Of a DNA stretch of 64,000 nucleotides, positions 16,082-51,836 are shown in pieces (position 1 is the first letter of the stretch; every line of letters starts with the position of its first letter). The stretch spans positions 90,942-154,941 of the forward strand of contig LCGL01000003.1 in NCBI GenBank assembly GCA_000999715.1. Direction: 5' to 3'. This stretch comes from Candidatus Falkowbacteria bacterium GW2011_GWF2_43_32 (GTDB taxonomy: Bacteria > Patescibacteriota > Patescibacteriia > Patescibacteriales > UBA12465). The position numbers and the translations under genes are program-made. Below the pieces are notes generated by a model. The model was given only the letters and a program-made list of their open reading frames with translations. It made no database searches and had not been told where the DNA came from.

Positions 16082-16116
16082 CACTGGGCTTTTGTTTAAA
16101 ATAAGCTCAAAAATAA

Positions 16117-19852: not shown

Positions 19853-19855
19853 GTG

Positions 19856-19929: not shown

Positions 19930-19939
19930 GTTCGCCGTG

Positions 19940-21135: not shown

Positions 21136-21255
21136 TTATTCCACGTCTTCTACGCTAATCTGGCGCAGGTTATCGTTAGTGATACCCAAACCGAGATTGC
21201 GCATAATGGCGAAAGCGTCAGCCGGGCGACCCAGATAATTCAGCTTGAGATCAAG
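21136..21255 (-). pseudogene. Out-of-frame remnant of the last 39 codons of the surface-anchor module (cut off by a 2-bp indel)
   Basis: Reads LDLKLNYLGRPADAFAIMRNLGLGITNDNLRQISVEDVE*, identical in protein sequence to the C-terminus of the 499-aa paralogue. It lies in a different frame from the 2075-aa ORF, which stops at 21251-21253. Confidence 0.6.
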
Positions 21256-30447: not shown

Positions 30448-31733
30448 TAAATTTTAACTTCCAACTCCTTATTTGTCGCTTTATAACCGATGCCCAATAA
30501 AATTAACAAAGTTATAACAGTGACACTAAAAATAAACAAGAGAGAATAAATCACCGACCAAATATCAGAATGGAATAATGCCAATAACATCACTTCTCCA
30601 ACGGCGGCGACAGTTAAAACTATCAGACCGCGTCGCTTGGCTAAAGCTAAAAAATATTGCGAAAGAACTGTAATTAAGGTCAAAAGTAGAATGACCAAAG
30701 AGAAAAGCGGTAAATAATCAGCAATACTTAAATACTTAGCACCCACGATAATTTTGATAACCAATTTTGGAAATAGAGCAATAAAAGCTGCCGCCGGTAT
30801 CGCTAATAATGACATAAGCGCCAAGGACTTTCCTAAAATTTTATATTTATGCCGACTTTTATCCTCTTTTAAATTGGCAATTACCGGAAACATCACTAAA
30901 GATATTGACCCGCCGATAAAATAAACTATCCGACCAATTGTCAAAAGGGCGCCATAAAGTCCGGCCTCTTCCGGGGTAAAAAACGATTTAACGAACAACA
31001 TGTCAAAATTATAAAAAAATTGGGACAAAGCCGTGAACCAAAGAACTAATAATCCATAACGCCAAATTTTTTTGAAAGAACCGGAAAATTGTTTAACTTG
31101 TGCTGGCAAATTTATTTTTTTCACTTGCCAAAAGCTGACAAAAAAAGGTAAAAGATTGCCTAGCCCCAAAGCCAAGGCGGCACCAATTAGGCCAAGCGGT
31201 TGCAAAACCACTAAGATTAATACTAAAACCAAACGGCTAAAAGCATCTAAAAAATTACTCAAAGACAAGGCGGAAAAATATTGACGACCGGACAACAGGG
31301 CGCGATTAATTATTAAAGGGAAAATACAAATAAAACTTAAAGCGGAAAAAATGATAGTCGTTGGTTGACTAATCTTAAATAACCTATTTAAAAATCCCGA
31401 AAATACAAATACAAGAAAAAACAAAATAAGACCAAAATAAAATAAACGACCGGCGGCGCGACGACGAAGAGATTTTATTTCTTCCGGCGCCGTTGCGGAC
31501 AAAAGAGAAAATTCTCTAATAAAAGCAGTCCCGATTACAGTGCTGACTATACTTAAAACCATTAAAAAAGACAGGAGCGCCTGATAATCACCATATTCGG
31601 GAATTGTTAAGCGCCGAGTGAGCAGCGGATGGACTAAATAATTAAGAACCGACGATAAAAAAGAGACAACCGTTAAAATAAAGGTCCCCCGAATTAACTT
31701 ATCCGACAACAAATTTTTAATATTTAATTTCAT
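30447..31733 (-). CDS. wzx: Wzx-type (MOP superfamily) oligosaccharide flippase
   Basis: 428 aa with roughly 12 hydrophobic segments. The N-terminus LIRGTFILTVVSFLSSVLNYLVHPLLTRRL resembles Polysacc_synt-family flippases. Sits in a glycan locus. Confidence 0.7.
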   Translation of the reverse strand: MKLNIKNLLSDKLIRGTFILTVVSFLSSVLNYLVHPLLTRRLTIPEYGDYQALLSFLMVLSIVSTVIGTAFIREFSLLSATAPEEIKSLRRRAAGRLFYFGLILFFLVFVFSGFLNRLFKISQPTTIIFSALSFICIFPLIINRALLSGRQYFSALSLSNFLDAFSRLVLVLILVVLQPLGLIGAALALGLGNLLPFFVSFWQVKKINLPAQVKQFSGSFKKIWRYGLLVLWFTALSQFFYNFDMLFVKSFFTPEEAGLYGALLTIGRIVYFIGGSISLVMFPVIANLKEDKSRHKYKILGKSLALMSLLAIPAAAFIALFPKLVIKIIVGAKYLSIADYLPLFSLVILLLTLITVLSQYFLALAKRRGLIVLTVAAVGEVMLLALFHSDIWSVIYSLLFIFSVTVITLLILLGIGYKATNKELEVKI

Positions 31734-33498
31734 AAAATAATAAAGTCTCTGTCTCTAAAATCAAATTTAAGTAATTTTGTTCACTCAACCAGCTATAGTC
31801 GCGCCAATCTAATTCTTTGGCCAAAATAATATAACGAAATTTTTTTTCGTCATAAACCGGCGGCGGACCGGAAACACCACGGTCTCTTATCCAGGCGCTG
31901 ACGGCTAAGCTATCCGGTTTTTGGCTATTATCATAAATCCCGCCCCATTCCATATTCGTCCCGGCTTGTGTCGGACAAGAAAAGAACTGCGGCGCCGGAT
32001 TGGCGACAATCTTTCCAGTCCAATTAAAACTCATATATAAATGCCAAGGTAAAAACAAAACCTTGTCTGAACAATTTCCGGTGTTTGCCGAGCGCTCAAG
32101 CAATAGCTCATTAACCTCATGCCAATCAGCCGGATACGACGTCGGCCGAATCTGCCCGCCAAAACCCCAAAGCAATGACGGCGCTTGCATGATAATCACC
32201 GCCGACAATAAAATGGCGCTCAAATAACTTTTGTTTTTTATTAATTTAAAATCCTTTAAACGCCCGACTCCAACGGTTAAATAAAACAAATAAATCGGCA
32301 CAATCACCGCCACCCATTTCTGCGATTCACGCAAACCCTTATAAAAAGGCAGATGATCATATAAAAATAAAGATAAGCCACGCGTTAACGGCGTCTTAAT
32401 TCCGACGGCCAGAAAAACAGCTAAAACAAAAATTAATAATAAACCGACACTAAAGAATTTTTCGACACGGTGACGTTTATAAAAACTCAAGCCAACACCG
32501 TAAATAATCAGTAAAGCCAAAAAAATAAAACTTCTTTGCCAACCGGGCGCATCCGTTAAATCAAAATAACGAAATTGATCTTTCCCCCAAAAACCGGACA
32601 TCAGTAAAACATTGGTAAAAACCTCCGTATCATTGGCGCCAGCCGTCTGAAAAGCAATTAAATCTTGATTGGTAATTCCCTGTTCAACAAAATCAAGCGT
32701 CGGCGAAACTTTAAGTGCTAAGGCAATAAGCCAATTGGCGTTAAGAAATAAAATAATAAACAGAGAAATTATCAGAGTCCGACCTAATTTTTTTAATTGC
32801 CCCGCGGTTTTTATCTCTCGTCGTCGAACAAATAGTCCGCCGAAAAAAAGTAAATAAAAAGGAATCAAAAAGAAAATAAAATGAACGGCAAACATTAAAG
32901 ATATGGCCGTAAAAATCGCAGCCTGATATGACTTCTTAAAATTCAAGGTCCGCCAAGTTTCCAATAAATAAGCCAAGACAAATAATAAGGCCCCGTAAGA
33001 GATCAGAACGCCGAACTGACCGTAGAGAGCCCGATCGTAAACAAAAGGATTAAATAAGGCAAACAAACTAAGAATAAAAATCAAGCCCGGGGCAGACTGG
33101 GGGATTTCCGACGATTTATTATCATCGCTACTATCGTTCTCCTTAAAATATTCCAGAACATTTTTCACTAAAGAGCGCCCGCCAAATAGAATTAAAGACA
33201 AAACTGCGGTAATAAAAATCTTTTCTAAAAGATCAGCCGGAATAATGAAAGATAAGCCATGCAGTAAAAATTTTATGACAAGCCAAGTGCTGGTCCAATC
33301 AAATTTAATCAGCGGCCCCCAGGCGCTATCGGTAAAAAAAAGATAACCGGGCCGAAAAAACCAGGGCAAAACAATCGCCAAAATTACGAACAAATAAGGC
33401 GCGTAGAGGGCGATTATTTTTTTAGTTTTTTCTCTTAAATGTTTCATTTTATATTTTTTTATAATTATCGGAAAAAGAGCGGCATATCCTCGTCTCAC
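31717..33498 (-). CDS. Large polytopic membrane protein with C-terminal extracytoplasmic domain (GT-C-like or polymerase-like)
   Basis: 593 aa, many TM segments. An early loop FFTDSAWGP could be an acidic GT-C-type motif. A more likely start is MKHLREK (about 33447). Confidence 0.5.
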   Translation of the reverse strand: MRRGYAALFPIIIKKYKMKHLREKTKKIIALYAPYLFVILAIVLPWFFRPGYLFFTDSAWGPLIKFDWTSTWLVIKFLLHGLSFIIPADLLEKIFITAVLSLILFGGRSLVKNVLEYFKENDSSDDNKSSEIPQSAPGLIFILSLFALFNPFVYDRALYGQFGVLISYGALLFVLAYLLETWRTLNFKKSYQAAIFTAISLMFAVHFIFFLIPFYLLFFGGLFVRRREIKTAGQLKKLGRTLIISLFIILFLNANWLIALALKVSPTLDFVEQGITNQDLIAFQTAGANDTEVFTNVLLMSGFWGKDQFRYFDLTDAPGWQRSFIFLALLIIYGVGLSFYKRHRVEKFFSVGLLLIFVLAVFLAVGIKTPLTRGLSLFLYDHLPFYKGLRESQKWVAVIVPIYLFYLTVGVGRLKDFKLIKNKSYLSAILLSAVIIMQAPSLLWGFGGQIRPTSYPADWHEVNELLLERSANTGNCSDKVLFLPWHLYMSFNWTGKIVANPAPQFFSCPTQAGTNMEWGGIYDNSQKPDSLAVSAWIRDRGVSGPPPVYDEKKFRYIILAKELDWRDYSWLSEQNYLNLILETETLLFYEIKY

Positions 33499-34369: not shown

Positions 34370-36826
34370 TTAATTTAATGGATTATTAAAGCTTTCTTCG
34401 AAAACATCTTCTTCTTTTTTCTTTCTTCTTCTCCCGATAGAGCCGTAAGTAAGATAAGTAACGCAACCCAACAAAGCCAGTCCGGAAATAAACAAGCCGA
34501 GATAAAACAATCTTTGCGGCCAAAATTCAATTATTAACTCAAAATCATAACTGCCATCGGAATTTTTAACACATTTTTCACTATTGGCGCAAATTTCATC
34601 CGGATCAATGAACCATGAATTGGCGTAACCGTTGACCATCAAATGATCCTCGTCATCGTTAATCGGTTTTTTAAACCAAGTCTCATAAAAACTCCCAACC
34701 GGCAGATTATCGTTTTGAATAGTGTCCTGGAAATTTTTAGAAACAAAATCAATTTTATAAGCTTCGTTATAATCAAAAATTTCTTTATTTCCATTCCATT
34801 TAACATGCTTGATATTTTTTTCCTCAAAATTTCCTAGAGTAGATATATAACCTCGATAAATAAAATCTTTTAATTCATAAATACCCGCCTGGTCATCCTC
34901 ATTGCCGTCTAAAATTTTATAATCCGATTCGTTTAAAAAGATTTCTTTTTTTTCATAATCGCCCAAATAGCTTTTCCAGCCATTATGGAAAGATTCGGAA
35001 AAGATCAATGGAAAATTTTCTGTCGCGTTATGGACAATAACACGATATTTAGTTGGATTTATTTTTTTGAACTCTAAAACAGGAACATTGATTATTTTTT
35101 GAGAGTCAGATTTTAAATAATAATTATAAAGATTAGCCGGCAAAACTCCTCCCGACTCCATCGCCCCTCTATATTCAATAATATTTTTGCCTTCTTTTAG
35201 CTTAATTTCGAGAGGATCATCTAATAATTTATCTTGATCGATTTTATAAATACCTTCTGAAACGAGCTTTATCTCGGATAATTCAATATCATCATATCTG
35301 TTTATAATTTCCCGACTTCCATCTGAAGGCGCATAAAAATATAAAATAACTTCGTTTATATCCTCTACCGGTTTAATAATAGTTTCATAATGATTCCATT
35401 CTTGATTATCAGTTGTAATAAATTCATTAAATGAATACGACTCTTCATTCCCAATTAAATTATAATAATAAAAAATCCTATCACCCTCAATACTTCGAAA
35501 ATCAAAAGAATATTTATAAAATCTATCTTTTTTAAGATTAATCTTAAAAATCTTTTTAACGCACGCAAAGTGATTCTTTGAACCAATTTCCAAAGAATAC
35601 CGGCCGTCGGAGGCATCTTCGACAAATTTTAAACTAAAATCCGCCTTTCCTTCCATATCACTAGTACAATCACCGGGTCTTTCTTGCCATAATCCTTCCT
35701 CAAAAGAATTATTTGGCAACTTAACCTGATCTGTCACTATCGTTCTCTCTATTTCTACGCCATCTTTAATATTTAAAAATTCTATAATTTTATTATATCC
35801 ATCTTGAATACTATAATAACTTTTTCCGGCCCTTAAAAAATTTCCAGGTTGGCTAGAAATTTCCAATAAAGTTTTGGATGGCGCATTAATTTCTTTATTG
35901 TTTATAAAGGTTTTTTCTATTGGAAACTTATTCACTACTACCTTCCGCGTTTCCGGAATATATTGAATACTAACCGAAAAATTTTGATGATTTATTTTTT
36001 CTAAATTAAAAATCTGATCAGCCTGATGTTTATTTAAAAATAAATTATTATCTTTTCGACTTTTATCAATATCATCAAATAAATAGGCAAAAAAGTAACT
36101 GGCCGGTACTTTATCAAATATATTAAAGTGCAATTGGTTTAAATAAAAAGCGGATCTAACTCCATAATTTTCTCGCAAAATTATCCCCGGTAATTTGTCC
36201 ACTTCTTGAGGAGTAATAATAATAAACTGTGGGGAATAAAAAATAGGAAGAAAATATTCGTTGGCAATTTCATAAATATCAAGCTCGCCAAAAACTTTTT
36301 TTATAAAAATATCCCCTCGTACATCTATTTTTTCTCTAACCGCCACCGGAGAATCAATATTTTTATAAAATTCCCAATCAATATCGTTTTCAAGCACAAT
36401 ATTCTTAATATTTAAAATAGGGGCCAATTTAACAAAAATATTAAAAAAATCATCACTATTATTAATACTATACAACATTTTTTGTATAGGATTTTCTTCT
36501 GTTTTTAAAAAAGTGGAAAGATACTTATCGGGCAAATATCGGGATAATGGATCTGGCCCCATATAATCCCAAAGATACACGCTATTATATAAATATTGCA
36601 TCGGAAGAGCATATGTTCGGAATATTTTTTTATGACTACCGAAATAATTTTCTGTCTCTTTATAATATGTCGGAACTTCTACCTGATTAGACAGCATAAT
36701 ACTATCTTTAAAATCAGGCATTATATCACCGGTTATGAAAGGAAAGGCCACTAAATTTATAACAATAAATACTATAATAAAAAACAGCCAAACCAAATAT
36801 TTCGAACTAAACATATTAATTTTCAT
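34370..36826 (-). CDS. Large extracytoplasmic protein with N- and C-terminal TM anchors; possible soluble half of a split AftD-like (DUF3367) glycosyltransferase
   Basis: 818 aa, very AT-rich. N-terminal TM (YLVWLFFIIVFIVINLVAF) and C-terminal TM (LFYLGLFISGLALLGCVTYL). A central region resembles a carbohydrate-binding beta-sandwich. Overlaps the upstream polytopic gene by 11 nt. Confidence 0.45.
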   Translation of the reverse strand: MKINMFSSKYLVWLFFIIVFIVINLVAFPFITGDIMPDFKDSIMLSNQVEVPTYYKETENYFGSHKKIFRTYALPMQYLYNSVYLWDYMGPDPLSRYLPDKYLSTFLKTEENPIQKMLYSINNSDDFFNIFVKLAPILNIKNIVLENDIDWEFYKNIDSPVAVREKIDVRGDIFIKKVFGELDIYEIANEYFLPIFYSPQFIIITPQEVDKLPGIILRENYGVRSAFYLNQLHFNIFDKVPASYFFAYLFDDIDKSRKDNNLFLNKHQADQIFNLEKINHQNFSVSIQYIPETRKVVVNKFPIEKTFINNKEINAPSKTLLEISSQPGNFLRAGKSYYSIQDGYNKIIEFLNIKDGVEIERTIVTDQVKLPNNSFEEGLWQERPGDCTSDMEGKADFSLKFVEDASDGRYSLEIGSKNHFACVKKIFKINLKKDRFYKYSFDFRSIEGDRIFYYYNLIGNEESYSFNEFITTDNQEWNHYETIIKPVEDINEVILYFYAPSDGSREIINRYDDIELSEIKLVSEGIYKIDQDKLLDDPLEIKLKEGKNIIEYRGAMESGGVLPANLYNYYLKSDSQKIINVPVLEFKKINPTKYRVIVHNATENFPLIFSESFHNGWKSYLGDYEKKEIFLNESDYKILDGNEDDQAGIYELKDFIYRGYISTLGNFEEKNIKHVKWNGNKEIFDYNEAYKIDFVSKNFQDTIQNDNLPVGSFYETWFKKPINDDEDHLMVNGYANSWFIDPDEICANSEKCVKNSDGSYDFELIIEFWPQRLFYLGLFISGLALLGCVTYLTYGSIGRRRKKKEEDVFEESFNNPLN

Positions 36827-38054
36827 ATTTAGATTCAGTATAATTAATTTTTCTAAATATTCCGCTGAAAGATATGCTAAGCAAAACGGAAAAACTAAAA
36901 ATAAAAATTAAACCAATTTTATCTAAAGGATTCCTGAACATAGAAAAAAATGGGTAACGAGTAAATAAAAAGGTATAAACCGCCCCAATAGGGGATTTCG
37001 GCCCGTTAATCAAAAGAAAACTGCTTATTGTTAAAAAGCCAAAAATAATAATATTTTTTTTATGTCTTCTATAAAAGAAAAACGAAGAATAACAAAGAAT
37101 CGCGATTAAAAATCCCAAACTTATAAAAAGCGGAGTTTTATAAATTGCGCTATATGGGTAATATAAGTCTCCTTTATAACTGCCAAAAAAACCAAAATGC
37201 CCCATAAATCTAAACCCTTCAGCTACTTTTTGAAAACTGGCATCACCAATATATTCCAAATTAACCGTAGGCGCAGAAGTGGCGGAATTTATATCTTTAC
37301 CTATATTATATAATGCCGGTATAACCGCGTGCGACCAGGCCAGAAAAAAGGATAAGCATATTAAGAGTAAACTGAACAATCTTCTTTTTAAAAAAATTTT
37401 AAACCCTTTTCCCTCGACCTGAAAAATAAAATCTATGATCAAATAAAATAAAACCAAAACTATAAGCATTAAACCGATTAGCAAATTATTGATCCCGGGA
37501 GAAGATAAAAGAAGAAAGATAGTAAGTAAAACAAAATCTTTACGGTTTGGCTTGTTAAAAACCTTAATGCAATACAAGAGAATTATTGGCAAAAATGCAT
37601 AAATAAATAAAATTATTAGCAAATGCCAAAAGAATTGCAAGGAATATAAATTAAACATGTAAAAATTCGCCCCCAAAAATGCCGCGGCGCTAACATATTT
37701 ATCCTGTAAAATATATTTAATAAATGAAAAAAAAGAGAAACCGGAAATAAATAATAAACTAGAAAATAATAATTTCTGAATTATTGCAAACGATAACCCG
37801 ATTTTCGATAATATAAAAATAGGAAATCGAAAAAACAATAGTAACGACACGCCCCGACTTTGCATCCCTCCTAAATTAACATCTTTCCAGGTAAAGCTAT
37901 GCGTGTATAGTTCTAAAGTGGGATCAAATATAAACGGGGTATCGGCAATACTAAGTATTTGATGTTTAAACCAAAAAAAAGGAAGGATAGATCCTAAAAA
38001 AATTAAAAATATAAATATTTTATTTTGATATTTTTCTAAAAAAATACTTATCAT
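36816..38054 (-). CDS. Polytopic membrane protein, GT-C-like (AftD/DUF3367-like N-terminal region)
   Basis: 412 aa with about 10 or more TM segments. The first loop ADTPFIFDPTLELYTHSFTWKDVNLGGMQSRGVSLLLF resembles, from memory, the GDTKLDL..DP...W....FG.vQNQ loop of DUF3367/AftD enzymes. Confidence 0.45.
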   Translation of the reverse strand: MISIFLEKYQNKIFIFLIFLGSILPFFWFKHQILSIADTPFIFDPTLELYTHSFTWKDVNLGGMQSRGVSLLLFFRFPIFILSKIGLSFAIIQKLLFSSLLFISGFSFFSFIKYILQDKYVSAAAFLGANFYMFNLYSLQFFWHLLIILFIYAFLPIILLYCIKVFNKPNRKDFVLLTIFLLLSSPGINNLLIGLMLIVLVLFYLIIDFIFQVEGKGFKIFLKRRLFSLLLICLSFFLAWSHAVIPALYNIGKDINSATSAPTVNLEYIGDASFQKVAEGFRFMGHFGFFGSYKGDLYYPYSAIYKTPLFISLGFLIAILCYSSFFFYRRHKKNIIIFGFLTISSFLLINGPKSPIGAVYTFLFTRYPFFSMFRNPLDKIGLIFIFSFSVLLSISFSGIFRKINYTESKYEN

Positions 38055-38063: not shown

Positions 38064-39212
38064 TTATCTTAAATCATTTAAAATATTTAAAAAATTTTCT
38101 TTTGTCAGACGCCGGGGATTATTTTTCATCCTGTCATGATTAAAACCGTTCTTAATAATAACTCTTATATCTTTATTACTAATACCTAAAGCACTTAATT
38201 TGGTTTCAAGTCCGACATTTTTTAATAATCTATGAATTTTATTTTTAGCCCCATGAACATCTGAAACACCGAATAAACCGATTAAATCTCTTATGGTTCT
38301 TTTTACATATTCAATCCCCCTTTTATCCATAATGTCTTCCGTCCCGACCTGACTATTATAAACCAACATACTTCCCAAGGTTAACGCGACCGCTTGTCCA
38401 TGGGGCACGCCGAAATAAGAAGTAATCGGATAAGAAATAGCATGGCAAGCTGTTGTTTCCGAAATATTAATGGCGCGGCCAGAGAGATTGGCCGCCCGAC
38501 TCATCGCTAATTTTGCCGAACGATTTGAATGCTTCACGGCTTTTTGAAAATTTTTTAAAATCAATTTAATCGCCTGAGCGGCGTATTTTTTCGATTCCGG
38601 GGTGGACTTTACGCTCCAATATGATTCAAGCGCCTGAGACAGAGCATCGGCTCCGGTCGCGGCCGCGATCTTTTTATCCAAACTGAGAGTAAATTGCGGA
38701 TCAATAATAGCACAATCCGGCAAAATATAAGGATGCTTTAAAGAATATTTATGTTTACCGATATAGATAACGGAAAATTGGGTTGCTTCACTGCCGGTGC
38801 CAGCTGTTGTGGGAATCGCCACTAATTTTTTACCCGGCTCTTTTATCTTCTTCTTTTTCAAAATATAATCTTTAGGGGAAGCGCCTTGAGCGGCTAAAAT
38901 ATTTATAGTTTTAGCAACATCGATCGCGCTTCCGCCGCCGATTGCAATTACCAAATCCGGATTATATTTTTTAAATAATTTTAAACCTCTTTTAATATCA
39001 ACTAAATTCGGATTAGACGAAAAGCCCGTAAAATTAAAAACAGAATATTTTTCAAAAACCGGCCGCAGTAATTTTTCCGCTCCGCAAAGCTTATAGGCCA
39101 TTTTTCCGGATACTAAAAAAATTTTCTTGACCTTATTATGGCCAAGATACTTATCTAAATTTTTAATAGCCCCCAAGCCGATATAGTTCTTTTGTGATGT
39201 TTTATCCTTCAT
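38064..39212 (-). CDS. Group III iron-type alcohol dehydrogenase; by context, phosphonoacetaldehyde reductase (FomC/PhpC-like)
   Basis: 382 aa. DLVIAIGGGSAIDVAK motif and His-rich metal-site region (ACHAISYPITSYFGVPHG). Overlaps the stop of the phosphonopyruvate decarboxylase gene by 1 nt. Confidence 0.75.
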   Translation of the reverse strand: MKDKTSQKNYIGLGAIKNLDKYLGHNKVKKIFLVSGKMAYKLCGAEKLLRPVFEKYSVFNFTGFSSNPNLVDIKRGLKLFKKYNPDLVIAIGGGSAIDVAKTINILAAQGASPKDYILKKKKIKEPGKKLVAIPTTAGTGSEATQFSVIYIGKHKYSLKHPYILPDCAIIDPQFTLSLDKKIAAATGADALSQALESYWSVKSTPESKKYAAQAIKLILKNFQKAVKHSNRSAKLAMSRAANLSGRAINISETTACHAISYPITSYFGVPHGQAVALTLGSMLVYNSQVGTEDIMDKRGIEYVKRTIRDLIGLFGVSDVHGAKNKIHRLLKNVGLETKLSALGISNKDIRVIIKNGFNHDRMKNNPRRLTKENFLNILNDLR

Positions 39213-40336
39213 TATTTTTTTAAAAAATTCATAAAATCCTTTTTGTTTTCAATCGGACTGATATTCGGACGACCAAGATCCTCCCGGGATGAAGTATTAA
39301 CCATTATTTCTATCAAAGACGGCCCGAAACTCTCTTGCGTTAAAGCAATATATTTCTTAATATCCTCCGGATTCTCCGCCCGATAAACATTTTTATATCC
39401 GCAAGCCCGAGCCAAAGATTGAATATCGATATTAAAAGCGGCGGTCGGTTGGCCACCGACTGACTCATGGCAACCGTTATTTAAAATTATGTGATGAAAA
39501 TTTTTCGGAGCAACCGAACCGATAACCGCCAAAGACCCCATATGCATAATCAGCGCGCCGTCGCCATCCAAACAATATACTCGCCGGTCTTTTTTCCGCG
39601 CGGCGATTCCTAAAGCGATTGAAGAAGAATGCCCCATCGAGCCGACCGTTAAAAAATCTTTATCATGGCTTTGACCCAAATAATCGCGGTATTCAAACAG
39701 CTCTCGCGAAGTTTTACCGGTTGTAGAAACAACAACATCTTCCGGCAATAAAGCGTCAACAATACATTTAATCGCTTCTTCACGCGAAACAGGATAATTA
39801 TTAGTCGCCTTATTTTGCAAAGAATATTTTTCAAAAGTATCTTTTTTAACAATTAAAGCATAAGGGGAATTATTATCTCTTAAATATTTACAGGCCTTAT
39901 CCAAACAAATATTTGCCTCTTCTTTCGAGGCCGGCAAAATATCGTAAGGAATAGACAAAGCTTCCAGTAATTTAGTCGTAATTTTTCCTTGCTTAATATG
40001 CTGGGGCTCATCTTTTTCGCCGGGTTCGCCGCGCCAACCAATAATTATCAACATCGGGATACTATAGACCTCGGAGTCGGCCAAAGAAACCAAAGGATTG
40101 ATAGCGTTTCCGATTCCCGAATTTTGCATATAAACCAAGCCGAAATTCCCCGTAGCCAAATAATGTCCGGCCGCTAAAGCAATAGCATTCCCCTCGTTAG
40201 CGCTAATAATATGATTTTCTCCGGCCTGATCCATTAAATAGGCACAAAAATTTTTCAATAAAGAATCCGGAACGCCGGCAAAAAAATCAATCTTTTTCTC
40301 CTTTAATAAACTGTAAAAATCTTGGCAATTGATCAT
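39212..40336 (-). CDS. ppd: Phosphonopyruvate decarboxylase (ThDP-dependent)
   Basis: 374 aa. FFAGVPDSLLKNFCAYL, ANEGNAIALAAGHYLATG, YMQNSGIGNAINPL, IGWRGEPGEKDEPQH, and the ThDP motif GDGALIMHMG...NNGCHESVGG. Confidence 0.9.
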   Translation of the reverse strand: MINCQDFYSLLKEKKIDFFAGVPDSLLKNFCAYLMDQAGENHIISANEGNAIALAAGHYLATGNFGLVYMQNSGIGNAINPLVSLADSEVYSIPMLIIIGWRGEPGEKDEPQHIKQGKITTKLLEALSIPYDILPASKEEANICLDKACKYLRDNNSPYALIVKKDTFEKYSLQNKATNNYPVSREEAIKCIVDALLPEDVVVSTTGKTSRELFEYRDYLGQSHDKDFLTVGSMGHSSSIALGIAARKKDRRVYCLDGDGALIMHMGSLAVIGSVAPKNFHHIILNNGCHESVGGQPTAAFNIDIQSLARACGYKNVYRAENPEDIKKYIALTQESFGPSLIEIMVNTSSREDLGRPNISPIENKKDFMNFLKK

Positions 40337-40337
40337 A

Positions 40338-41645
40338 TTATTTCCCTCCCGGGATTAAAGTTAAAATTTCTTTAATCGATAAACATTCGTTCTCACATTC
40401 ATAAGATCTTTCGTTAAGTAAAATTGATTTAGCCGTATTAACCATTGCCGGATAAGCACTACGTAAGAGATGATTCGCATAAATTATAATATTCACTCCG
40501 GCCTCGATTAATTCGCTCTCATAAATTTTATTAAAACTTGAAGGTACAACTACAAGCGGCACTTTCCTTTCAAATTTTTTATATTCCCGACAAAATTCCA
40601 ATATTTCATCCGCTTCTTTTTCCCGGCTATGAATCATTATTCCGTCGGCGCCGGCCTCAATATAAGCCCGAGCGCGCTTAACCGCGTCATCTAGACCTTT
40701 CTTAAGAATTAAACTCTCAATTCTGGCGATAATCATAAAATCATCCGTCACCTGAGCCTTTTTACCCATGGAAATCTTATGGCAAAAACTATCAATATTA
40801 TCCTGAGTTTGTTCAACATCCGTTCCAAATAAGGAATTCTTTTTTAAACCAATTTTATCTTCAATGATAACAGCCGAGACCCCCATTCTTTCCAAGGTCT
40901 TAACACCGAAAACAAAATGTTCAGGAATGCCACCGGTATCTCCATCAAAAATTATCGGCTTAGTTGTTACTTCCATAATATCATTGACCGTAGTCAATCG
41001 AGAAGTCAAGTCCACGCATTCAATATCTGGCTTCCCTTTAGCCGTTGAATCCGTCAAGCTACTCAACCACATACCGTCAAATTCCTTAATTCCCTTTTCA
41101 TTTTTTATTTTAAGATTATCCACAATTAAGCCGGTCAAACCATTATGCGCCTCCATGATTCTTAAAGCCGGCTTTACCTCCAATAACCTCTTTAATCTTT
41201 TCATTCTTATCTCCGGCGTTGTTCCGATCTCATGCATCTTTTCGTGCAATAAAGTCGAAGAAATTCCTTTCGTGTAAGGAAATTCTATTAATTCTCCACC
41301 CCAATCTTTCAAGGCCTCTATAACTCTGGCTCTGGCTTCTTTCTGCGCCCCTTCTTTCCAATCATCGCCATGGACGACATAATCCGGTTTTATCTCTTTT
41401 AAATTCGAAACATAATCTAAGGTATCTTGAGGTACAACTCTGATAACTCCTTTTAAGCTTTCCATAATCTCCTTTCTTTGTTCAAAAGCCAAAGCCGGTA
41501 AACGCTTATAACTGGCAATCGCCTTATCGGTCAATAATCCAATAACAACCTCGCCAAGTTCTTTGGCGCGATTGATTATATTTAAATGGCCGGGATGAAT
41601 TAAATCAGCACTCATGCCGACATATGCTATTTTTGGTTTATTCAT
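40338..41645 (-). CDS. pepM: Bifunctional cytidylyltransferase / phosphoenolpyruvate mutase (Fom1/PntC-PepM-type fusion)
   Basis: 435 aa. The N-terminal [27 protein letters not shown] carries the HxGH nucleotidyltransferase motif. The C-terminal domain has [12 protein letters not shown] and the PepM-diagnostic EDK-x5-NS ([15 protein letters not shown]). Confidence 0.9.
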
Positions 41646-41710: not shown

Positions 41711-43150
41711 TTAATCTCTGATCAATCCGTTAAGACGCTTTAACAATAAATCGGCACCCTTTCTAGAATGATCCATAACTTCACTTCTTTTTAATAAACT
41801 AAATAATTCCGAAATCTTCTGAGAAAATTTAACAAATTTTTCCTTCCTTTTAACATGGATGGAATAAATCCTATTATGTATCGTTGTTTGTTTTCTCTCA
41901 ATGTCAGAATTAAAAAGAATTTCATGTTCCTTCTCTCCCGGGCGTCGACCAATAACTTTAAAATTAACTTCGGATATCTTGTACCCCCTAACCCTGGCTA
42001 AACATTTAGCCAATTCGAGGATATTAACCGGATCACCCATCTTTAGTATATATTTCCCACCGTCACTTTTAGCCATAAAACTGGCCTGCAAGACCAAATG
42101 AACCGCTTCAGGAATAGTCATAAAATAACGGGTCATTTTCGGGTCAGTAACCGTAACTATCTTATTCTTATCAATCTGGCTAAGAAAAATCTCGACCGCG
42201 CTTCCGCTACTATTAAATACGTTACCGAAACGAACAGTCGTATACATTGTTTTAATAAAAATATCAGTAAAATATTCAACTATTTTCTCTGCCAAGCGCT
42301 TGGTTTTCCCCATTACATTACAAGGGGAAACGGCCTTATCGGTTGAAATTAAAACAAATTTCTGACAACGAAATTTACCGGCCAAATTAGCGACATGATA
42401 AGTGCCAAAAACATTATTAAAAATTCCTTCATAAATCTGAGCTTCGATAATCGGCACATGTTTATAAGCGGCGGCATGAAATACAATATCTATATTATGA
42501 TCTTTGAATAATCTTTTCAAAAGCGAAAAATTATTTATATTTCCGAGAATAAATATAACCTTGGTTGACTTATTAAGACCCGATATTTCATTAAGAAGTC
42601 GCTTAACATTAAATAAATTCTTTTCAACGCAATCTAAAATAACAAGTTTTTTTGGCCTTAAAAGATAAATCTGTTTTGATAATTCTGTTCCGATTGATCC
42701 GCCGCCACCCGTAACCAGCAAGGTTTTTTCCTTGAAATATCCGTCTAATTTTAGTTGGTCGGACTTTATTATCGCCTCCCCTACAATATCCTCAATCTCA
42801 ACCGATCTTAAATTCTTATAAGAAGCTTCATTATTAAAAACGACCTCCGATGCACGTGGCAATAATAATAATTCAATCTTATTATCTTCTCCCAGTAATA
42901 ACAAAATTTTCCTTATAAAGGATCCTCGTTCTGAAGGAACGGCAATAATAACGCTATCAATTTGATTCTTCCTGACTATTTTAGGCAAATCATTAATCGG
43001 ACCGAGGATAAATAATTTATTTCCGCTCCCCTTCTTAACCTGATCATCAACAAAACCAACTACTTTCCATTGTAAATCTTTTTGCTCCTTAATATTATTT
43101 AGGAGAAGCAAGCCGGCCTGACCGGCTCCAACAATTAATACTTTACGCAT
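41711..43150 (-). CDS. Nucleotide-sugar 4,6-dehydratase, CapD/PglF/WbpM-like (soluble form)
   Basis: 479 aa. Two Rossmann regions (VLIVGAGQAG; TLLVTGGGGSIGTELSKQI) and HAAAYKHVP. Confidence 0.85.
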   Translation of the reverse strand: MRKVLIVGAGQAGLLLLNNIKEQKDLQWKVVGFVDDQVKKGSGNKLFILGPINDLPKIVRKNQIDSVIIAVPSERGSFIRKILLLLGEDNKIELLLLPRASEVVFNNEASYKNLRSVEIEDIVGEAIIKSDQLKLDGYFKEKTLLVTGGGGSIGTELSKQIYLLRPKKLVILDCVEKNLFNVKRLLNEISGLNKSTKVIFILGNINNFSLLKRLFKDHNIDIVFHAAAYKHVPIIEAQIYEGIFNNVFGTYHVANLAGKFRCQKFVLISTDKAVSPCNVMGKTKRLAEKIVEYFTDIFIKTMYTTVRFGNVFNSSGSAVEIFLSQIDKNKIVTVTDPKMTRYFMTIPEAVHLVLQASFMAKSDGGKYILKMGDPVNILELAKCLARVRGYKISEVNFKVIGRRPGEKEHEILFNSDIERKQTTIHNRIYSIHVKRKEKFVKFSQKISELFSLLKRSEVMDHSRKGADLLLKRLNGLIRD

Positions 43151-43157: not shown

Positions 43158-44048
43158 TTATAATAAATTTCTTTCTTTAAGGCACCATAAAAGAGAATCC
43201 TCCAGACTGTATTGGGGCCGCCATTGATAATCTTTGACTACTTTACTGATATCGCAAGCCGTCTTATTAAGGGACTCGTTTTTATTTTCAATTAAAACTT
43301 CGGGGTTGGGCAAATTATACTGTTGCAAAATCTTTTTTAGTTTATTCAGTACTTCTCCGTAACTTATGTTGCTGCCAGAGGCTATATTATATAAAAATGA
43401 TTTACTGGGGGAGACCATAATCACACCTAATAACCGACAAAAATCACGAATGTCTAAAAAATCTCTCTCAATTTCTAGACTATTAATTAAGACCTGGCCT
43501 TTTTCTCTTTCCGCTACTGCTTTTAGCACGGCGCCGATAAAAGAACGTGGCGGCAAGGACGGGGTAATTACATTAGATAGTCTTAATACTTGAACATCGA
43601 TATTAAAGTTAGAATAATAGTAATAGCATAACGCCGTTTGAAGCAACTTTGATTCGCCATATAGAGTACTCGGGCGAGGAGCCGTATCCTCATTTATTAA
43701 ACCGCTCCTCGGATATTCAGCGGCCGAATTTATAACAATATATCTTTTTTTTCGACCGACCTCATTAATAAAAAATTTATTTAAAACAAAGCTATTAAGC
43801 TTAAAATCATCTAAATTATCAACCGCAATTTTCCCCGCACAATGAATAATAAGATCAATTTTTTTATCTTCTAATATATTAGCTATCTGATGATCGGATA
43901 TCTCTAACAAATCAAACCGTAGATCCGCCCCCATTCCTCTTGATAAGGTTAAAACCTTGTGGCCCGCTGATAAATACTTAGTTAAATAAGCCCCAATACT
44001 ACCATTGCCACCAGTAATTAGTATATTCATATTACAAATGTTTAACAA
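43158..44048 (-). CDS. NAD-dependent epimerase/dehydratase (SDR) family protein
   Basis: 296 aa. NILITGGNGSIGAYL Rossmann motif and YGESK (Y-x3-K). Confidence 0.75.
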   Translation of the reverse strand: MLNICNMNILITGGNGSIGAYLTKYLSAGHKVLTLSRGMGADLRFDLLEISDHQIANILEDKKIDLIIHCAGKIAVDNLDDFKLNSFVLNKFFINEVGRKKRYIVINSAAEYPRSGLINEDTAPRPSTLYGESKLLQTALCYYYYSNFNIDVQVLRLSNVITPSLPPRSFIGAVLKAVAEREKGQVLINSLEIERDFLDIRDFCRLLGVIMVSPSKSFLYNIASGSNISYGEVLNKLKKILQQYNLPNPEVLIENKNESLNKTACDISKVVKDYQWRPQYSLEDSLLWCLKERNLL

Positions 44049-45216
44049 TAAAGTTATATAACCGTTGAGAGGATAGACCGTCTTGATAATAATTGAACTT
44101 ATCCTTAAACTTTTTATATTTATCCTGGTACTCTTGATTACTAAACCATTCTGGCAAGGTCGTGGCTAGGCGCAATAATTCCCCCTCATTTTTCGCAAAT
44201 GGCCCAAGCATATCCTGATAATAATCATAATACATTTCCCGGCAATTATCTATATAATTCTCATAATCATAGGAATAAAATATTACTGGCTTATTCAGCA
44301 AACAAAAATCAAAAACAATACCAGAATAATCAGTAATTAAAACGTCAACACTAGTTAAGTATTCTTGTAAATTATCAACGGAATAGGTAATATCTACGAT
44401 ATTTGAATAATCCTTATAGAGCTTAATATTGCGGTTAGCATTCTGATCGGCGATATGCCTTTTAATTAAAAAAATACCATTATTTTCCTTTAAAAAAGCG
44501 TTAAACTTATCTAAAAAACTCTCAGAAAAAGGAACTAAATCCGTATAATAATCTCGGAAGGTCGGCGCATAAAGAAAAATGGTTTTATATTTACTGAGAT
44601 CCAAACTGGGAATATCCTTTTTCTCGCCTTTGACTAAAATATCATCCCGCGCATAGCCGAGACAAACAACACTCTCGTTCCTAAAACCACTTTTCAAAAA
44701 ATCAATATCAGCTTTCGATTTAGTAATAATATATTTATATTGACGCCACTCTTTTCTCATAAAATAACTAAACCAACCTTTTTGATCATCTTTGTTATCA
44801 AAAAGTATTTTTTTGATTGGCACGCCATGCCATAGATTAATAACGTTGAATCTACCTAAGGTAAAGGCCACCCCGGAAACGTCTTGCATTGATTGCTCAA
44901 CAACGAAATAGTTGGCCCTAAAAACATGCCAAATTCCTTTTAAAGAATAGGGAAATATAACCGGCAAACCTTGTTTTTTAAACTTTTCATAAATTTTTCT
45001 ATTCTTAGTCATCCAATAATAATCAAGATCTTTAACATCATGTTCTACTAAATATAGATAAAGATATTTGGTGTTACCAATAAATCTGCTTCCTAAATTG
45101 GAACCTAATAAAATTAATTTTTTCTGTTTCGGGACTAAGTAAGAAATTACAAAAAACACTGGAATCAGCAAAATATTCCTCAATACTTTGACAACAAAAT
45201 TTAACTTTTTCTGCAT
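44032..45216 (-). CDS. CDP-glycerol glycerophosphotransferase (TagB/TagF) family protein
   Basis: 394 aa. FLYAPTFRDY and VLITDYSGIVFDFCLLNKPVIFYSYD are characteristic TagF-family blocks. Confidence 0.8.
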   Translation of the reverse strand: MQKKLNFVVKVLRNILLIPVFFVISYLVPKQKKLILLGSNLGSRFIGNTKYLYLYLVEHDVKDLDYYWMTKNRKIYEKFKKQGLPVIFPYSLKGIWHVFRANYFVVEQSMQDVSGVAFTLGRFNVINLWHGVPIKKILFDNKDDQKGWFSYFMRKEWRQYKYIITKSKADIDFLKSGFRNESVVCLGYARDDILVKGEKKDIPSLDLSKYKTIFLYAPTFRDYYTDLVPFSESFLDKFNAFLKENNGIFLIKRHIADQNANRNIKLYKDYSNIVDITYSVDNLQEYLTSVDVLITDYSGIVFDFCLLNKPVIFYSYDYENYIDNCREMYYDYYQDMLGPFAKNEGELLRLATTLPEWFSNQEYQDKYKKFKDKFNYYQDGLSSQRLYNFIVKHL

Positions 45217-45237: not shown

Positions 45238-46455
45238 CTATCGATCACAATAATCTTCAAAATATGACTCAAAGCCATTTGCAGTTATATCCCAATCAAA
45301 CGTTTTGGAATAATTATAACCCTCTAGCGACTTTATTTTATATAATTCTTGATCAATTAATAATCTTTTTAAATTTTGAGCAAAAGCCTCATTGTCTCTA
45401 AAGGAGGCCTTTAGAACACCTGCCCTATGAGTATCGTAACAAGGCAAATCATATTCAACAACTGGGGTGCCGACGCTAATGGCGTCTAAATAAACCAAAC
45501 CAAAACTTTCGAAGAAAGAAGGAAAAAGCAAAATCTTCGACTTTTTTAAAAAATTATATTTCTCCACGCCATATTTTGGACCTAAAAACTTAAAATCATA
45601 ACCGATCTCCGCGATTTCTTTCTCGAGCCATCCCAAATAATCTCCCTTTTTCGGGCTTTCTTTTGGGGCAATAAATATTACTGATAATTTTTGATCATGG
45701 CTTTTTTTTAAGCGTCTCAAAATATCCGGGATTTCATCTGTTCCTTTCTGCGTATGGAAGCGGCCCAAAAAACAAATGTCATAAAGTTTATTTTCCATGC
45801 TTGTTTCCGGTTCGCCGAAATACTCGCGCCCATACCTTATGACATGAAGGTTTGCATTTTTCTTCAACAGCTCTTCCCTATTAGTGGCGTTGCCACAGGC
45901 CAAAAGATCCGCTTTTTTTTGCATAAGAAAAAATAATTTCTGGTTCAACCATTGATAAACCTCAAAAAAATTAGGAATTCTAAATTTTTTAATATAAATA
46001 TGTTGACGGAGAAAAGGATTAGGAAAAACTAAATTATGGGTTACGGCAATCCAATAGGCCGTCGGATTCGCTAATTTTAAAAGAAAGGCAAAAAGCATAT
46101 TTGGCCAGGCGTCAAAATGAGAAACAATAATATTTTTTTCAGTATCGAATTTTTTAACGAATTTCAATGATTTAAAAATAATAATAAAATAACGAACCAA
46201 TATCTTAAATCGATCTCCAAGACTAGGATTATCTTTTAAAATATTAACAGTCCGAATACCACAAACTCCTGGTTCGACGGAAGATTGACTCCAACCGAAA
46301 TAATTAACCGAAGGATATTTTTTCGCCCACCTAGAAACCACTTCGTCGGTAAATTTCTCTCCTCCGCTCAAAGCGTTGCCGCAACGACAAATTGAAATAT
46401 TATGAATTGTCATTTTATTGTTTTTACTATCACCGCCCATAATTGTAATTACCAC
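45238..46455 (-). CDS. Glycosyltransferase family 4
   Basis: 405 aa. LLFPSFFESFGLVYLDAISVGTPVVEYD is the E-x7-E region. The true start may be the internal MTIHNISI. Confidence 0.75.
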   Translation of the reverse strand: MVITIMGGDSKNNKMTIHNISICRCGNALSGGEKFTDEVVSRWAKKYPSVNYFGWSQSSVEPGVCGIRTVNILKDNPSLGDRFKILVRYFIIIFKSLKFVKKFDTEKNIIVSHFDAWPNMLFAFLLKLANPTAYWIAVTHNLVFPNPFLRQHIYIKKFRIPNFFEVYQWLNQKLFFLMQKKADLLACGNATNREELLKKNANLHVIRYGREYFGEPETSMENKLYDICFLGRFHTQKGTDEIPDILRRLKKSHDQKLSVIFIAPKESPKKGDYLGWLEKEIAEIGYDFKFLGPKYGVEKYNFLKKSKILLFPSFFESFGLVYLDAISVGTPVVEYDLPCYDTHRAGVLKASFRDNEAFAQNLKRLLIDQELYKIKSLEGYNYSKTFDWDITANGFESYFEDYCDR

Positions 46456-47363
46456 TTGTGACTTAAATCAAAATATTCTCTCCGGCGCGAAATTCGCTTC
46501 ATAAATGTCCAAGCTCTAAAAAATAGACCATGAAAACGAATTGGAACAATCTTTCGTAAACTCGATACTAACCTATCAAAAACATTCTTGTTAAAATCAT
46601 GCTCTACCGCGGCGCCATCCTCAGAAAGTTTTTTATAAAAATATTGATCGGGAGACATAATTGTTTCAACCTGATTTTTCTTTCGAACCAGAAAACAATT
46701 TAAAAGACGATTGCCGGGCTTAAAAGACAAACCGACATAATCTCTCGCCTGGTTGTACTTGTGAAACCTCTGAACCCGACCACGAATTTCTATCAAATAA
46801 GCTTCGACTATCTCGAATCCGTTGTCTGTGTAAAAATCATGGAAAAAAGTTGGCGAAAATTGATAAAATCCGTGATTAAGAAAATTTTGCGCCGGAAGTA
46901 TCTGCAATACGTAACCGCCGATCTTCGCCATTCGGACAATATTTTCCATTACCGACTTTATATCAAAAATATGTTCCAAAGTACCGCTATCAATAATAAA
47001 ATTAAAAAAATCATGGAATTTAGAATCAACCGGGGATTGTAAATCATGAAGAATTTTCGGCCGATCAAAGGGAAACTTATCAATATCATAATAATCTTCC
47101 TCTTTAATTCCTAAAAATTCAAAGAAGGTTTTCGCGTGTATATAATTCGCTGCTTCCTTATTTATTTTAGGGATATCACTACTGACGGAATGCAGAATTT
47201 TTTCTAGCCGGCTAAACTCAATCTTTTCTTTTGCCAATAAACCTTCAATATTTTGAGCCGTAGCATAAATATCCTGATTTCCTAAAGTAAGAACCGGGCC
47301 AATAAATTTATATTTTTTTACTCTTTGAACAATAAATTTTAAATGAGGCGCTGGTAAACCCAT
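46449..47363 (-). CDS. Methyltransferase-fold-like hypothetical protein
   Basis: 304 aa. FNFIIDSGTLEHIFDIKSVMENIVRMAKIGGYVLQILP resembles the post-II/III region of class I SAM methyltransferases. The glycine-rich motif I is degenerate (VLTLGNQD). Confidence 0.45.
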   Translation of the reverse strand: MGLPAPHLKFIVQRVKKYKFIGPVLTLGNQDIYATAQNIEGLLAKEKIEFSRLEKILHSVSSDIPKINKEAANYIHAKTFFEFLGIKEEDYYDIDKFPFDRPKILHDLQSPVDSKFHDFFNFIIDSGTLEHIFDIKSVMENIVRMAKIGGYVLQILPAQNFLNHGFYQFSPTFFHDFYTDNGFEIVEAYLIEIRGRVQRFHKYNQARDYVGLSFKPGNRLLNCFLVRKKNQVETIMSPDQYFYKKLSEDGAAVEHDFNKNVFDRLVSSLRKIVPIRFHGLFFRAWTFMKRISRRREYFDLSHKW

Positions 47364-51832: not shown

Positions 51833-51836
51833 AATT

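Follow-up and report, generated by a model that had tools for sequence, protein, structure and literature searches.

A cassette predicted to make CMP-activated 2-hydroxyethylphosphonate in a glycan-biosynthesis island of a Falkowbacteria genome

We describe here a cassette of three minus-strand genes (positions 38064-41645) in a 64,000-nucleotide stretch of contig LCGL01000003.1 from Candidatus Falkowbacteria bacterium GW2011_GWF2_43_32; this whole stretch is referred to below as the window. The genes encode a fusion of a cytidylyltransferase (CyTase) with a phosphoenolpyruvate (PEP) mutase (PepM), a phosphonopyruvate decarboxylase (Ppd) and an alcohol dehydrogenase (ADH), and they lie in an island of glycan-assembly genes. 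We consider it likely that this coupled module supplies cytidine monophosphate (CMP)-activated 2-hydroxyethylphosphonate (CMP-HEP) for transfer by a TagF/TarF-like enzyme onto a lipid-linked surface glycan. The steps that would lead to CMP-HEP, catalysed by PepM, Ppd, ADH and CyTase, are very probably assigned correctly in view of membership of curated models, conservation of catalytic residues and the comparative setting. The assignment of the transferase and the extracellular fate of its product are parts of the proposal that we infer from the genomic surroundings.

The predicted route to CMP-HEP

The cassette consists of the following genes:

Positions 40338-41645, minus strand: gene 1, CyTase-PepM fusion, 435 aa, a Fom1-type bifunctional enzyme
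Positions 39212-40336, minus strand: gene 2, Ppd, 374 aa, a thiamine diphosphate-dependent enzyme of the Ppd/Fom2/AepY type
Positions 38064-39212, minus strand: gene 3, ADH, 382 aa, a group-III (Fe/Zn) alcohol dehydrogenase and predicted phosphonoacetaldehyde reductase of the PhpC/FomC type

An earlier reading of this DNA from its sequence (the first-pass annotation) had described three coupled genes with junctions of -1 to +1 nt, and both the coordinates and the junctions are confirmed in the sequence. Genes 1 and 2 meet at TAA-T-ATG, a 1-nt spacer with GGGAGGG upstream, and at the junction of genes 2 and 3 (TAATG) the ADH start lies on the ppd stop with a 1-nt overlap. Gene 3 is followed after 9 nt by the next gene, and a 65-nt AT-rich intergenic stretch lies upstream of gene 1. 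Scanning of the region from 29 to 48.5 kb returned 107 promoter-like sites against 71.5 +/- 9.6 in shuffled sequences, a count that is uninformative in such AT-rich DNA, and every terminator-like site in the same scan was intragenic. The description of the host as resembling the Candidate Phyla Radiation (CPR) also proved apt. The cysteinyl- and histidyl-tRNA synthetases, FtsI, Ppd, ADH and other proteins of the window match GW2011_GWF2_43_32 records (KKT132xx) exactly, and the genome that carries the cassette is a genuine member of the CPR (Patescibacteria).

The sequence evidence supports gene 1 as a Fom1-type CyTase-PepM fusion with predicted PEP mutase activity. Pfam places PF01467 at residues 12-134 and PF13714 at residues 152-409; the HxGH motif of the CyTase domain is present as HPGH (residues 17-20) and the EDKX5NS motif of the PEP mutase domain lies at residues 262-271. 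The fusion scores 414.3 bits against the TIGR02320 PEP mutase model (cut-off 319.55) and falls far under the respective cut-offs of the models for phosphonopyruvate hydrolase, methylisocitrate lyase and CPEP mutase. Its N-terminal domain matches the structure of the Fom1 CyTase (PDB 5x3d) with an E-value of 4.8e-58 and 65% identity over 137 residues, and the PepM structures 5unc and 1m1b match the fusion at E ~1e-38. All nine positions of Mytilus PepM (1m1b) that we take to be its catalytic and Mg-binding residues (D58, D85, D87, E114, K120, N122, S123, R159 and H190) are identical in the fusion, in which they correspond to D207, D234, D236, E262, K268, N270, S271, R308 and H339.

Gene 2 scores 509.2 bits with the TIGR03297 model for phosphonopyruvate decarboxylase (cut-off 312.5) and remains under the cut-offs of the sulfopyruvate decarboxylase models. 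It carries the TPP_enzyme_N and TPP_enzyme_C domains (PF02776, PF02775) and corresponds to NCBI record KKT13243.1, which is named phosphonopyruvate decarboxylase. A Ppd homologue was found in 70 of 80 related loci, nearly always directly after the pepM fusion; these 80 are the nearest loci, with one genome per species. Gene 3 contains the Fe-ADH (PF00465) and ADH_Fe_C (PF25137) domains, and three of its metal ligands, D189, H257 and H271, do not vary among 51 cassette ADHs. The cassette-linked enzymes also have an invariant HAxSY motif (S260, Y261). Homologues of this enzyme are encoded at 50 of the 80 loci and follow ppd in the same contiguous order at about 46 of them, including that of Glycomyces sp. 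NRRL B-16210. The domain assignments offered by the first-pass annotation (an HxGH CyTase joined to a PEP mutase with EDK-x5-NS, then Ppd and an iron-type ADH) therefore hold up against profile models: PepM and Ppd lie above curated cut-offs, and the CyTase and Fe-ADH domains are both found by Pfam.

In the pathway that we propose, the PepM domain would convert PEP to phosphonopyruvate, which Ppd would decarboxylate to phosphonoacetaldehyde, thereby pulling the unfavourable mutase equilibrium forward. The ADH would then convert phosphonoacetaldehyde to 2-hydroxyethylphosphonate (HEP), and the N-terminal Fom1-type CyTase domain would combine HEP with cytidine triphosphate to give CMP-HEP. Here too the earlier prediction, that this is the Fom1/Fom2/FomC enzyme set with CMP-HEP as its joint product, is supported by models, residues and comparative context. 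A bifunctional first enzyme is common to the window and to fosfomycin biosynthesis in Streptomyces wedmorensis (Cho et al., 2017, in the form in which PMC6697681 cites it), and the chemistry predicted for the window is that of the fosfomycin pathway as far as CMP-HEP. Beyond this point the two differ. In contrast to the fosfomycin cluster, no adjacent Fom3, HppE epoxidase, FomD hydrolase or FomA/B kinase appears in the Pfam results for the window, and CMP, which is a transient protecting group in the fosfomycin pathway, would be expected here to serve as leaving group when the phosphonate is passed to a surface polymer.

The prediction of HEP rather than 2-aminoethylphosphonate (AEP) as the product draws on both the linked genes and the CyTase itself. 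Across the 80 loci an ADH is present in 50 and a class-V aminotransferase (AEP transaminase, AEPT) in 19, and none has both. A phmmer search of the six-frame open reading frames (ORFs) of the window with a cassette-linked AEPT as query found no AEP transaminase. Likewise, the Pfam annotation, which covers essentially all window ORFs of at least 120 aa, contains no class-V aminotransferase (PF00266), cupin or DUF402 domain, and none of the catabolic partners PhnX, PhnA and PhnY. No PntC, LicD, CDP (cytidine diphosphate)-alcohol transferase or DegT aminotransferase was found in a six-frame search of the window with cassette-linked queries. These scans agree with the earlier statement that the window lacks an AEP transaminase, an HppE-type epoxidase and a FomD-type hydrolase; a linked transaminase, which would have spoken for ordinary AEP, was not detected in the window.

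Within the CyTase domain, six alignment columns separate the ADH-linked from the AEPT-linked fusions (ADH-linked residue first: L38/H, A42/V, K47/W, Q56/E, Y78/Q and S130/I). Both the window fusion and Fom1 have the ADH-linked residue at all six, a comparison that is confounded by phylogeny and that we regard as supportive and not decisive, because most of the AEPT-linked set falls into a single clade. Of the fusion family, only Fom1 has been shown to cytidylylate HEP (PMC6697681). The six positions are candidate determinants of specificity for HEP versus AEP, and Trp and Glu, found in the AEP-type fusions, would be suited to binding an ammonium group.

A candidate phosphonyl transferase and the surrounding glycan island

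Of the CMP-releasing transferase families, just one was found in the window, and its gene lies 2.4 kb upstream of the cassette on the same strand:

Positions 44032-45216, minus strand: TagF/TarF-like CDP-alcohol phosphotransferase, 394 aa, stand-alone and TarF-sized (PF04464, E 9.7e-66, 222.6 bits)

From its context we infer that this protein, named 'Glycerophosphotransferase' at NCBI, is a candidate for the step in which CMP-HEP would donate its HEP-phosphonyl group to a glycan hydroxyl. It matches the structures of TarL (PDB 8va1) and TagF (PDB 3l7i), and in the alignment to TagF its H130 and H254 fall on the catalytic histidines H444 and H584. It thus resembles the wall teichoic acid enzymes TarF, TagF and TarL in its PF04464 domain, its TarF size and its possession of both histidines, and the reaction expected of it is of the same type, in which an acceptor hydroxyl would attack a cytidine-activated donor at phosphorus and CMP would be released. 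It differs from TarF, TarL and TarB in falling far under their equivalog cut-offs (for its best NCBIfam matches, TarF and TarL, 123.6 bits vs 550 and 101.5 vs 1000, respectively; for TarB, 29.9 vs 500) and in its predicted donor, which is CMP-HEP and not CDP-glycerol or CDP-ribitol. According to the Pfam results the glycan island has no cytidylyltransferase besides the Fom1-type domain, with none of the TagD, IspD, LicC or PntC type. TagD and TarI/J genes are missing from the window, whose sole other nucleotidyltransferase is an RmlA-like protein encoded beside RmlD, 35 kb away. The first-pass annotation had favoured decoration of a surface glycan as the fate of the phosphonate; that reading is supported here, but the TagF/TarF-like candidate for the acceptor-side step had been missed.

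Occurrence of the transferase was surveyed with iteratively built profiles for three CMP-releasing families, which were searched in the 80 loci. One of these families is encoded within 10 kb of the cassette, and often abuts it, in 36 of the 50 ADH-type loci (72%) and in none of the 19 AEPT-type loci, an enrichment that is itself confounded by phylogeny. When only loci of at least 15 kb are considered, the proportion is 26 of 35 ADH-type loci. TagF-like proteins account for 18 of the ADH-type loci, LicD for 16 and CDP-OH_P_transf for 7, and in spot checks of the family assignment 10 of 10 proteins scored above the Pfam gathering score. The arrangement shares its logic with the Pnt pathways (PntC/LicC-type; Rice et al., 2019, PMC6697681), in which Ppm is fused or adjacent to a cytidylyltransferase and a CMP-releasing transferase such as LicD follows. 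Unlike the characterised PntC enzymes, which belong to PF12804 and prefer AEP, the window has a PF01467 domain, with an ADH in place of the transaminase and a TagF-like protein in place of LicD.

A closer parallel in gene content is offered by Glycomyces sp. NRRL B-16210, an organism named in the title of a paper on phosphonoglycan purification (2014, J Bacteriol; cited as ref. 43 in PMC8942020 and also in PMC13576164). The same two sources report HEP in polysaccharides of Glycomyces and Stackebrandtia actinomycetes, and PMC8942020 refers to a HEP conjugate purified from Stackebrandtia exopolysaccharide. The Glycomyces locus (L032 in our set) has the gene order of the window, namely a Fom1-type CyTase-PepM, Ppd and Fe-ADH (65%, 47% and 36% identity, respectively), and, like the window with its TagF-like gene, it has two TagF-family (PF04464) genes within 10 kb, one of them immediately upstream of pepM. 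Unlike the window, it encodes large TPR-LicD proteins and a GT2-TagF fusion downstream. The window, for its part, has a stand-alone 394-aa enzyme of TarF size, Wzx and GT-C enzymes, and the host is a CPR bacterium and not an actinomycete.

In the remaining steps of the proposed pathway, the surrounding glycosyltransferases would build a lipid-linked glycan at the cytoplasmic face, and the HEP-phosphonyl group would be moved from CMP-HEP onto one of its sugar hydroxyls, most likely by the TagF/TarF-like protein. Wzx would then flip the decorated unit, and GT-C enzymes (STT3/PglB-like and AftD-like) would transfer or extend it outside the membrane. The genes on which these steps draw lie in a low-GC island of about 29.5-53.6 kb that includes the cassette (GC 0.29-0.38 vs 0.45-0.49 in the flanks). 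It contains GT2 and GT4 glycosyltransferases, a PglF/PseB-like 4,6-dehydratase, short-chain dehydrogenase/reductase (SDR) epimerases, S-adenosylmethionine (SAM)-dependent methyltransferases, a split transketolase, Wzx and GT-C-type proteins. Pfam and fold comparison accordingly bear out the earlier picture of a cassette set among glycosyltransferases, a flippase and GT-C enzymes, and the composition of the island fits that of a laterally exchanged surface-polysaccharide locus. The principal genes around the cassette are:

Positions 30447-31733, minus strand: Wzx-type polysaccharide flippase (PF13440 and PF01943), syntenic with the cassette in the three closest related loci
Positions 31717-33498, minus strand: GT-C-fold membrane glycosyltransferase (STT3/PglB/ArnT-like), 593 aa, no Pfam match
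Positions 34370-36826, minus strand: ORF of 818 aa with a weak CBM_4_9 match, directly downstream of the cassette together with the following ORF
Positions 36816-38054, minus strand: ORF of 412 aa, polytopic membrane protein
Positions 41711-43150, minus strand: PglF/PseB/FnlA-like UDP-HexNAc 4,6-dehydratase with an N-terminal CoA_binding_3 domain (PF02719, E 1.3e-93), directly upstream of the cassette
Positions 43158-44048, minus strand: SDR epimerase/reductase (PF01370, E 2.4e-27)
Positions 45238-46455, minus strand: GT4 glycosyltransferase (PF00534 and PF13692)

The best NCBIfam matches of the 4,6-dehydratase are PseB and FnlA, both under cut-off, and the adjacent SDR protein is probably a sugar-nucleotide 4-reductase or epimerase that partners it. 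On the other side of the cassette, apart from the weak CBM_4_9 match, the two ORFs at 34370-38054 have no significant Pfam match in their window copy. They overlap by 11 nt and correspond to one ORF of 1024 aa in a related metagenome locus (L082, described below), where a GT-C_AftD match is weak and under cut-off (E 4e-4); judged from these sequences, the pair would represent either a split AftD-like GT-C glycosyltransferase or an assembly frameshift. The AlphaFold2 model of the GT-C protein at 31717-33498 (pLDDT 84.7, pTM 0.89) gives yeast and human STT3, PglB, AftA and ArnT as its top Foldseek matches (E 2e-5 to 4e-3). This gene occurs with the cassette, in conserved synteny, at each of the four Falkowbacteria-type loci (the window genome and the three closest relatives). 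The protein belongs to a family of 234 members that, wherever a source is named, come from Patescibacteria or Falkowbacteria; its D40 and a PWHxY stretch are invariant. The protein could, as modelled, be an oligosaccharyltransferase-like enzyme specific to CPR. We considered it as a phosphonate-specific transferase and rejected this role: the family is far wider than the cassette, and the fold is that of glycosyltransferases of the STT3/PglB/ArnT type.

Several other features of the window are recorded here as side observations. The region 49986-52658 encodes, among glycosyltransferases and methyltransferases, an SDR epimerase and a transketolase split into an N-terminal half (51837-52658) and a C-terminal half (50909-51832), which suggests that a branched or two-carbon-extended sugar is made. 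Some 12 kb from the cassette a B12-binding radical SAM protein (53652-55175) is flanked by GT2 glycosyltransferases (52668-53555 and 55217-56278), and this radical SAM and GT2 pair is conserved in a gammaproteobacterial metagenome-assembled genome (MAG; L035) with 47% and 52% identity. Its best NCBIfam match is HpnJ, the hopanoid ring-contraction enzyme (141 bits, under cut-off), compared with 66 bits for the PhpK P-methyltransferase family. Fom3 is also an enzyme of the B12 radical SAM class, and a Fom3 role for this protein in making CMP-2-hydroxypropylphosphonate was considered and rejected on the grounds of its HpnJ match, its distance of 12 kb and its covariation with GT2 and not with the cassette; it might modify a sugar and not a phosphonate. 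Just outside the island, positions 21251-27478 encode a predicted surface protein of 2075 aa with five CarboxypepD_reg-like domains, Big_5 and fn3, which is a possible adhesin or glycosylation target. Genes for tRNA-Val and tRNA-Leu (19855-20023) lie about 10 kb beyond the low-coordinate edge of the island. Finally, positions 60511-62553 encode a 680-aa fusion in which residues 40-354 resemble glutamyl-tRNA reductase (HemA) and residues 374-680 resemble the class-II catalytic core of AspRS/AsnRS/AsnA without an anticodon-binding domain; such a fusion is unusual in an organism that is not expected to make haem.

Distribution and mobility of the module

The cassette is an unexceptional example of a module that is widespread, laterally mobile and annotated already and that has a chemically characterised counterpart in actinomycetes; it represents neither new chemistry nor a new kind of system. 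The fusion family comprises at least 8000 database proteins at E <= 1e-30 from many phyla, and both domains are present in all of its 120 best-scoring members. A screen of related genomes, which the first-pass annotation had suggested for pepM, finds that 50 of the 80 loci share the pepM-ppd-ADH set; they are spread over more than 15 phyla and include other CPR and DPANN lineages. GenBank already names the genes discussed here as PEP mutase, phosphonopyruvate decarboxylase, iron-containing alcohol dehydrogenase and glycerophosphotransferase. Published surveys set the wider frame: 23.6% of Ppm enzymes are fused to PF01467 and most phosphonate capacity is devoted to cell-surface tailoring (Rice et al., PMC6697681), and the HEP branch makes up 8.5% of ppm neighbourhoods (Li and Horsman, PMC8942020).

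The three closest loci (L002-L004) come from Patescibacteria/Falkowbacteria MAGs and encode fusions that are 93%, 89% and 86% identical to that of the window. The rest, at 63-75% identity, span Ignavibacteria, Cloacimonadota, Bacteroidales, Clostridium, Stenotrophomonas, SAR86, Planctomycetes and Chloroflexi, as well as Candidatus Portnoybacteria, several DPANN archaea and Glycomyces sp. NRRL B-16210. A neighbour-joining tree unites the window with the three Falkowbacteria-type sequences in a single tight clade beside an Ignavibacteria sequence and places the Portnoybacteria and DPANN sequences elsewhere; this scattered placement of CPR and DPANN members points to lateral spread of the fusion. 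Between the ADH and GT-C genes of L004, a Lac Pavin Falkowbacteria MAG, lie two Bro-N proteins of a kind typical of phages (14701-16293), which hints at mobile-element traffic through the locus. In Candidatus Portnoybacteria RBG_13_40_8 (L029) a B12-binding radical SAM protein (13645-15069), only distantly related to that of the window (E 1e-13), directly follows the Fom1-like, Ppd and ADH genes and precedes an ABC transporter. It is in the position that Fom3 would occupy, and CMP-HEP may be C-methylated there.

A metagenome search with the TagF-like protein returned a single close homologue locus, too few for statistics, on contig Ga0066637_10001374 (8038-14758; L082). It preserves the synteny of the window across the GT4, methyltransferase, TagF-like, epimerase, dehydratase and AftD-like GT-C genes, with identities of 70% for the TagF-like protein, 65% for the dehydratase, 61% for the SDR epimerase and 59% for the GT4. 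The gap between the dehydratase and GT-C genes measures 16 nt and is without pepM-ppd-ADH; a different nucleotidyltransferase is encoded at the contig end. Synteny without the cassette implies that the three genes behave as an insertable module of 3.6 kb.

Searches of the literature found neither a description of phosphonate biosynthesis in CPR nor a paper that joins phosphonate, glycerophosphotransferase and pepM. The first-pass annotation, too, knew of no described carbon-phosphorus (C-P) envelope decoration in such an organism. We likewise found none described for CPR, but the rarity had been overstated, as the module is common and annotated. Its presence in CPR and DPANN lineages is apparently undescribed and amounts to a modest extension.

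Competing readings and biological significance

Several observations weigh against the proposal that the cassette feeds a TagF/TarF-like transfer to a surface glycan. It is built on sequence and model evidence and takes in 64 kb of the genome. The best NCBIfam match of gene 3 is TIGR03405 (PhpC/PsrA clade) at 192.7 bits, under the cut-off of 423.7. PhpC-type enzymes are highly divergent, with a mean identity of 39% (PMC13576164), so failure to reach this narrow cut-off does not exclude phosphonoacetaldehyde reductase function. In addition, position 193 of the window ADH, the second canonical metal ligand, is Gln instead of His. The residue is His in FucO-type enzymes; among the 51 cassette ADHs it is Gln in 32 and His in 19, which marks Gln193 as a family trait and not as decay. 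Together with the HAxSY motif it may be a signature of a phosphonoacetaldehyde reductase subgroup.

On the transferase side, the 19 transaminase loci against which the enrichment was measured mostly belong to one Clostridium-type clade. The TagF-like gene of the metagenome locus L082 is kept where the cassette is missing, and the enzyme is thus not intrinsically tied to phosphonates. Moreover, the three closest relatives of the cassette have no TagF-like gene within 10 kb and instead encode a CDP-alcohol phosphatidyltransferase of the PF01066 family:

L002, positions 9256-9975: PF01066 CDP-alcohol phosphatidyltransferase, directly before the cassette
L003, positions 242-997: PF01066 CDP-alcohol phosphatidyltransferase, within 5 kb of the cassette
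L004, positions 4132-4983: PF01066 CDP-alcohol phosphatidyltransferase, within 5 kb of the cassette

This substitution suggests that the acceptor-side step is interchangeable and that close relatives have swapped their transferase; the acceptor in these relatives may be a lipid, with a phosphonolipid as a possible product.

Some of these observations would also be expected if the HEP module and the TagF-like protein were unconnected, the latter using a CDP-alcohol such as CDP-glycerol made elsewhere and an unrecognised transferase consuming CMP-HEP. Retention of the TagF-like gene and its neighbours in L082 would fit such an arrangement, as would the 9 of 35 ADH-type loci of at least 15 kb in which no member of the three transferase families lies within 10 kb, and unannotated island proteins such as hyp304 (46449-47363) and hyp278 (29611-30447) are examples of possible transferases. 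We nonetheless think this unlikely, if worth keeping in view: the island has no other cytidylyltransferase of the TagD, IspD, LicC or PntC type, and many unrelated lineages have a TagF-family gene right beside the cassette, the chemically characterised Glycomyces locus among them. Alternatively, CMP-HEP could be made as proposed and passed to a lipid, giving a phosphonolipid head group in the manner of CDP-ethanolamine or CMP-AEP transfer to diacylglycerol. The PF01066 enzymes near the cassettes of L002-L004, whose fusions are 86-93% identical to that of the window, point in this direction, and PF01066-linked ppm neighbourhoods have been classed as phosphonolipid loci (PMC8942020). For the window itself, however, this acceptor seems distinctly unlikely, given that no PF01066 protein was detected in the 64 kb, that the known members of the TagF-like family use glycan or teichoic-acid acceptors and that the island otherwise consists of glycan machinery.

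A diversion of the pathway at an earlier or later point finds still less room in the data. Synthesis of ordinary AEP by a transaminase encoded outside the window, with the ADH reduced to a side activity or a catabolic role, would be compatible with inspection of only 64 kb of the genome and with the occurrence of Fom1-type fusions beside an AEP transaminase in 19 of the 80 loci. It is nevertheless very improbable in the face of the 1-nt overlap between ADH start and ppd stop, the mutual exclusion of ADH and transaminase in all 80 loci, the ADH-type (Fom1-type) residues at all six discriminating CyTase positions and the lack of a PhnX, PhnA or PhnY partner in the window. We give least credence of all to a diffusible phosphonate natural product, fosfomycin-like or other, for which CMP-HEP would be a transient intermediate as in Streptomyces. 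The enzyme set does equal Fom1/Fom2/FomC, and at a distance of 12 kb there is a protein of the B12-binding radical SAM class, but the Pfam results for essentially all window ORFs of at least 120 aa contain no HppE-type cupin, FomD-type hydrolase, kinase or exporter, and the radical SAM protein is nearer to HpnJ (141 bits) than to PhpK (66 bits) and travels with GT2.

The preferred reading, transfer of HEP from CMP-HEP to a lipid-linked surface glycan by the TagF/TarF-like protein, can also be taken further. CMP-HEP has a free hydroxyl, as CDP-glycerol does, and a TarF-like enzyme could therefore add HEP repeatedly. HEP would then be a repeated or bridging unit in a teichoic-acid-like chain with phosphodiesterase-resistant C-P linkages, which Wzx would flip and the Patescibacteria-specific STT3/PglB-like GT-C enzyme would transfer en bloc to a surface protein. 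We regard this version as doubtful; if true, it would be the first case of a phosphono-glycoconjugate system in an episymbiotic CPR cell, and TagF, LicD and CDP-OH transferases would be interchangeable phosphonyl transferases across bacteria and DPANN archaea.

The comparative result has a more immediate use. HEP cassettes are usually accompanied by a TagF-like, LicD or CDP-alcohol transferase, which provides concrete candidates for phosphonyl transfer, and close relatives swap between these families. If the proposal of a HEP-decorated surface glycan is correct, some CPR and DPANN organisms, which live attached to hosts with minimal metabolism, coat part of their surface with a C-P compound. 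Such a coat would resist phosphatases and phosphodiesterases, and it could bear on host attachment, on evasion of phages and grazers and on the retention of phosphorus in groundwater.

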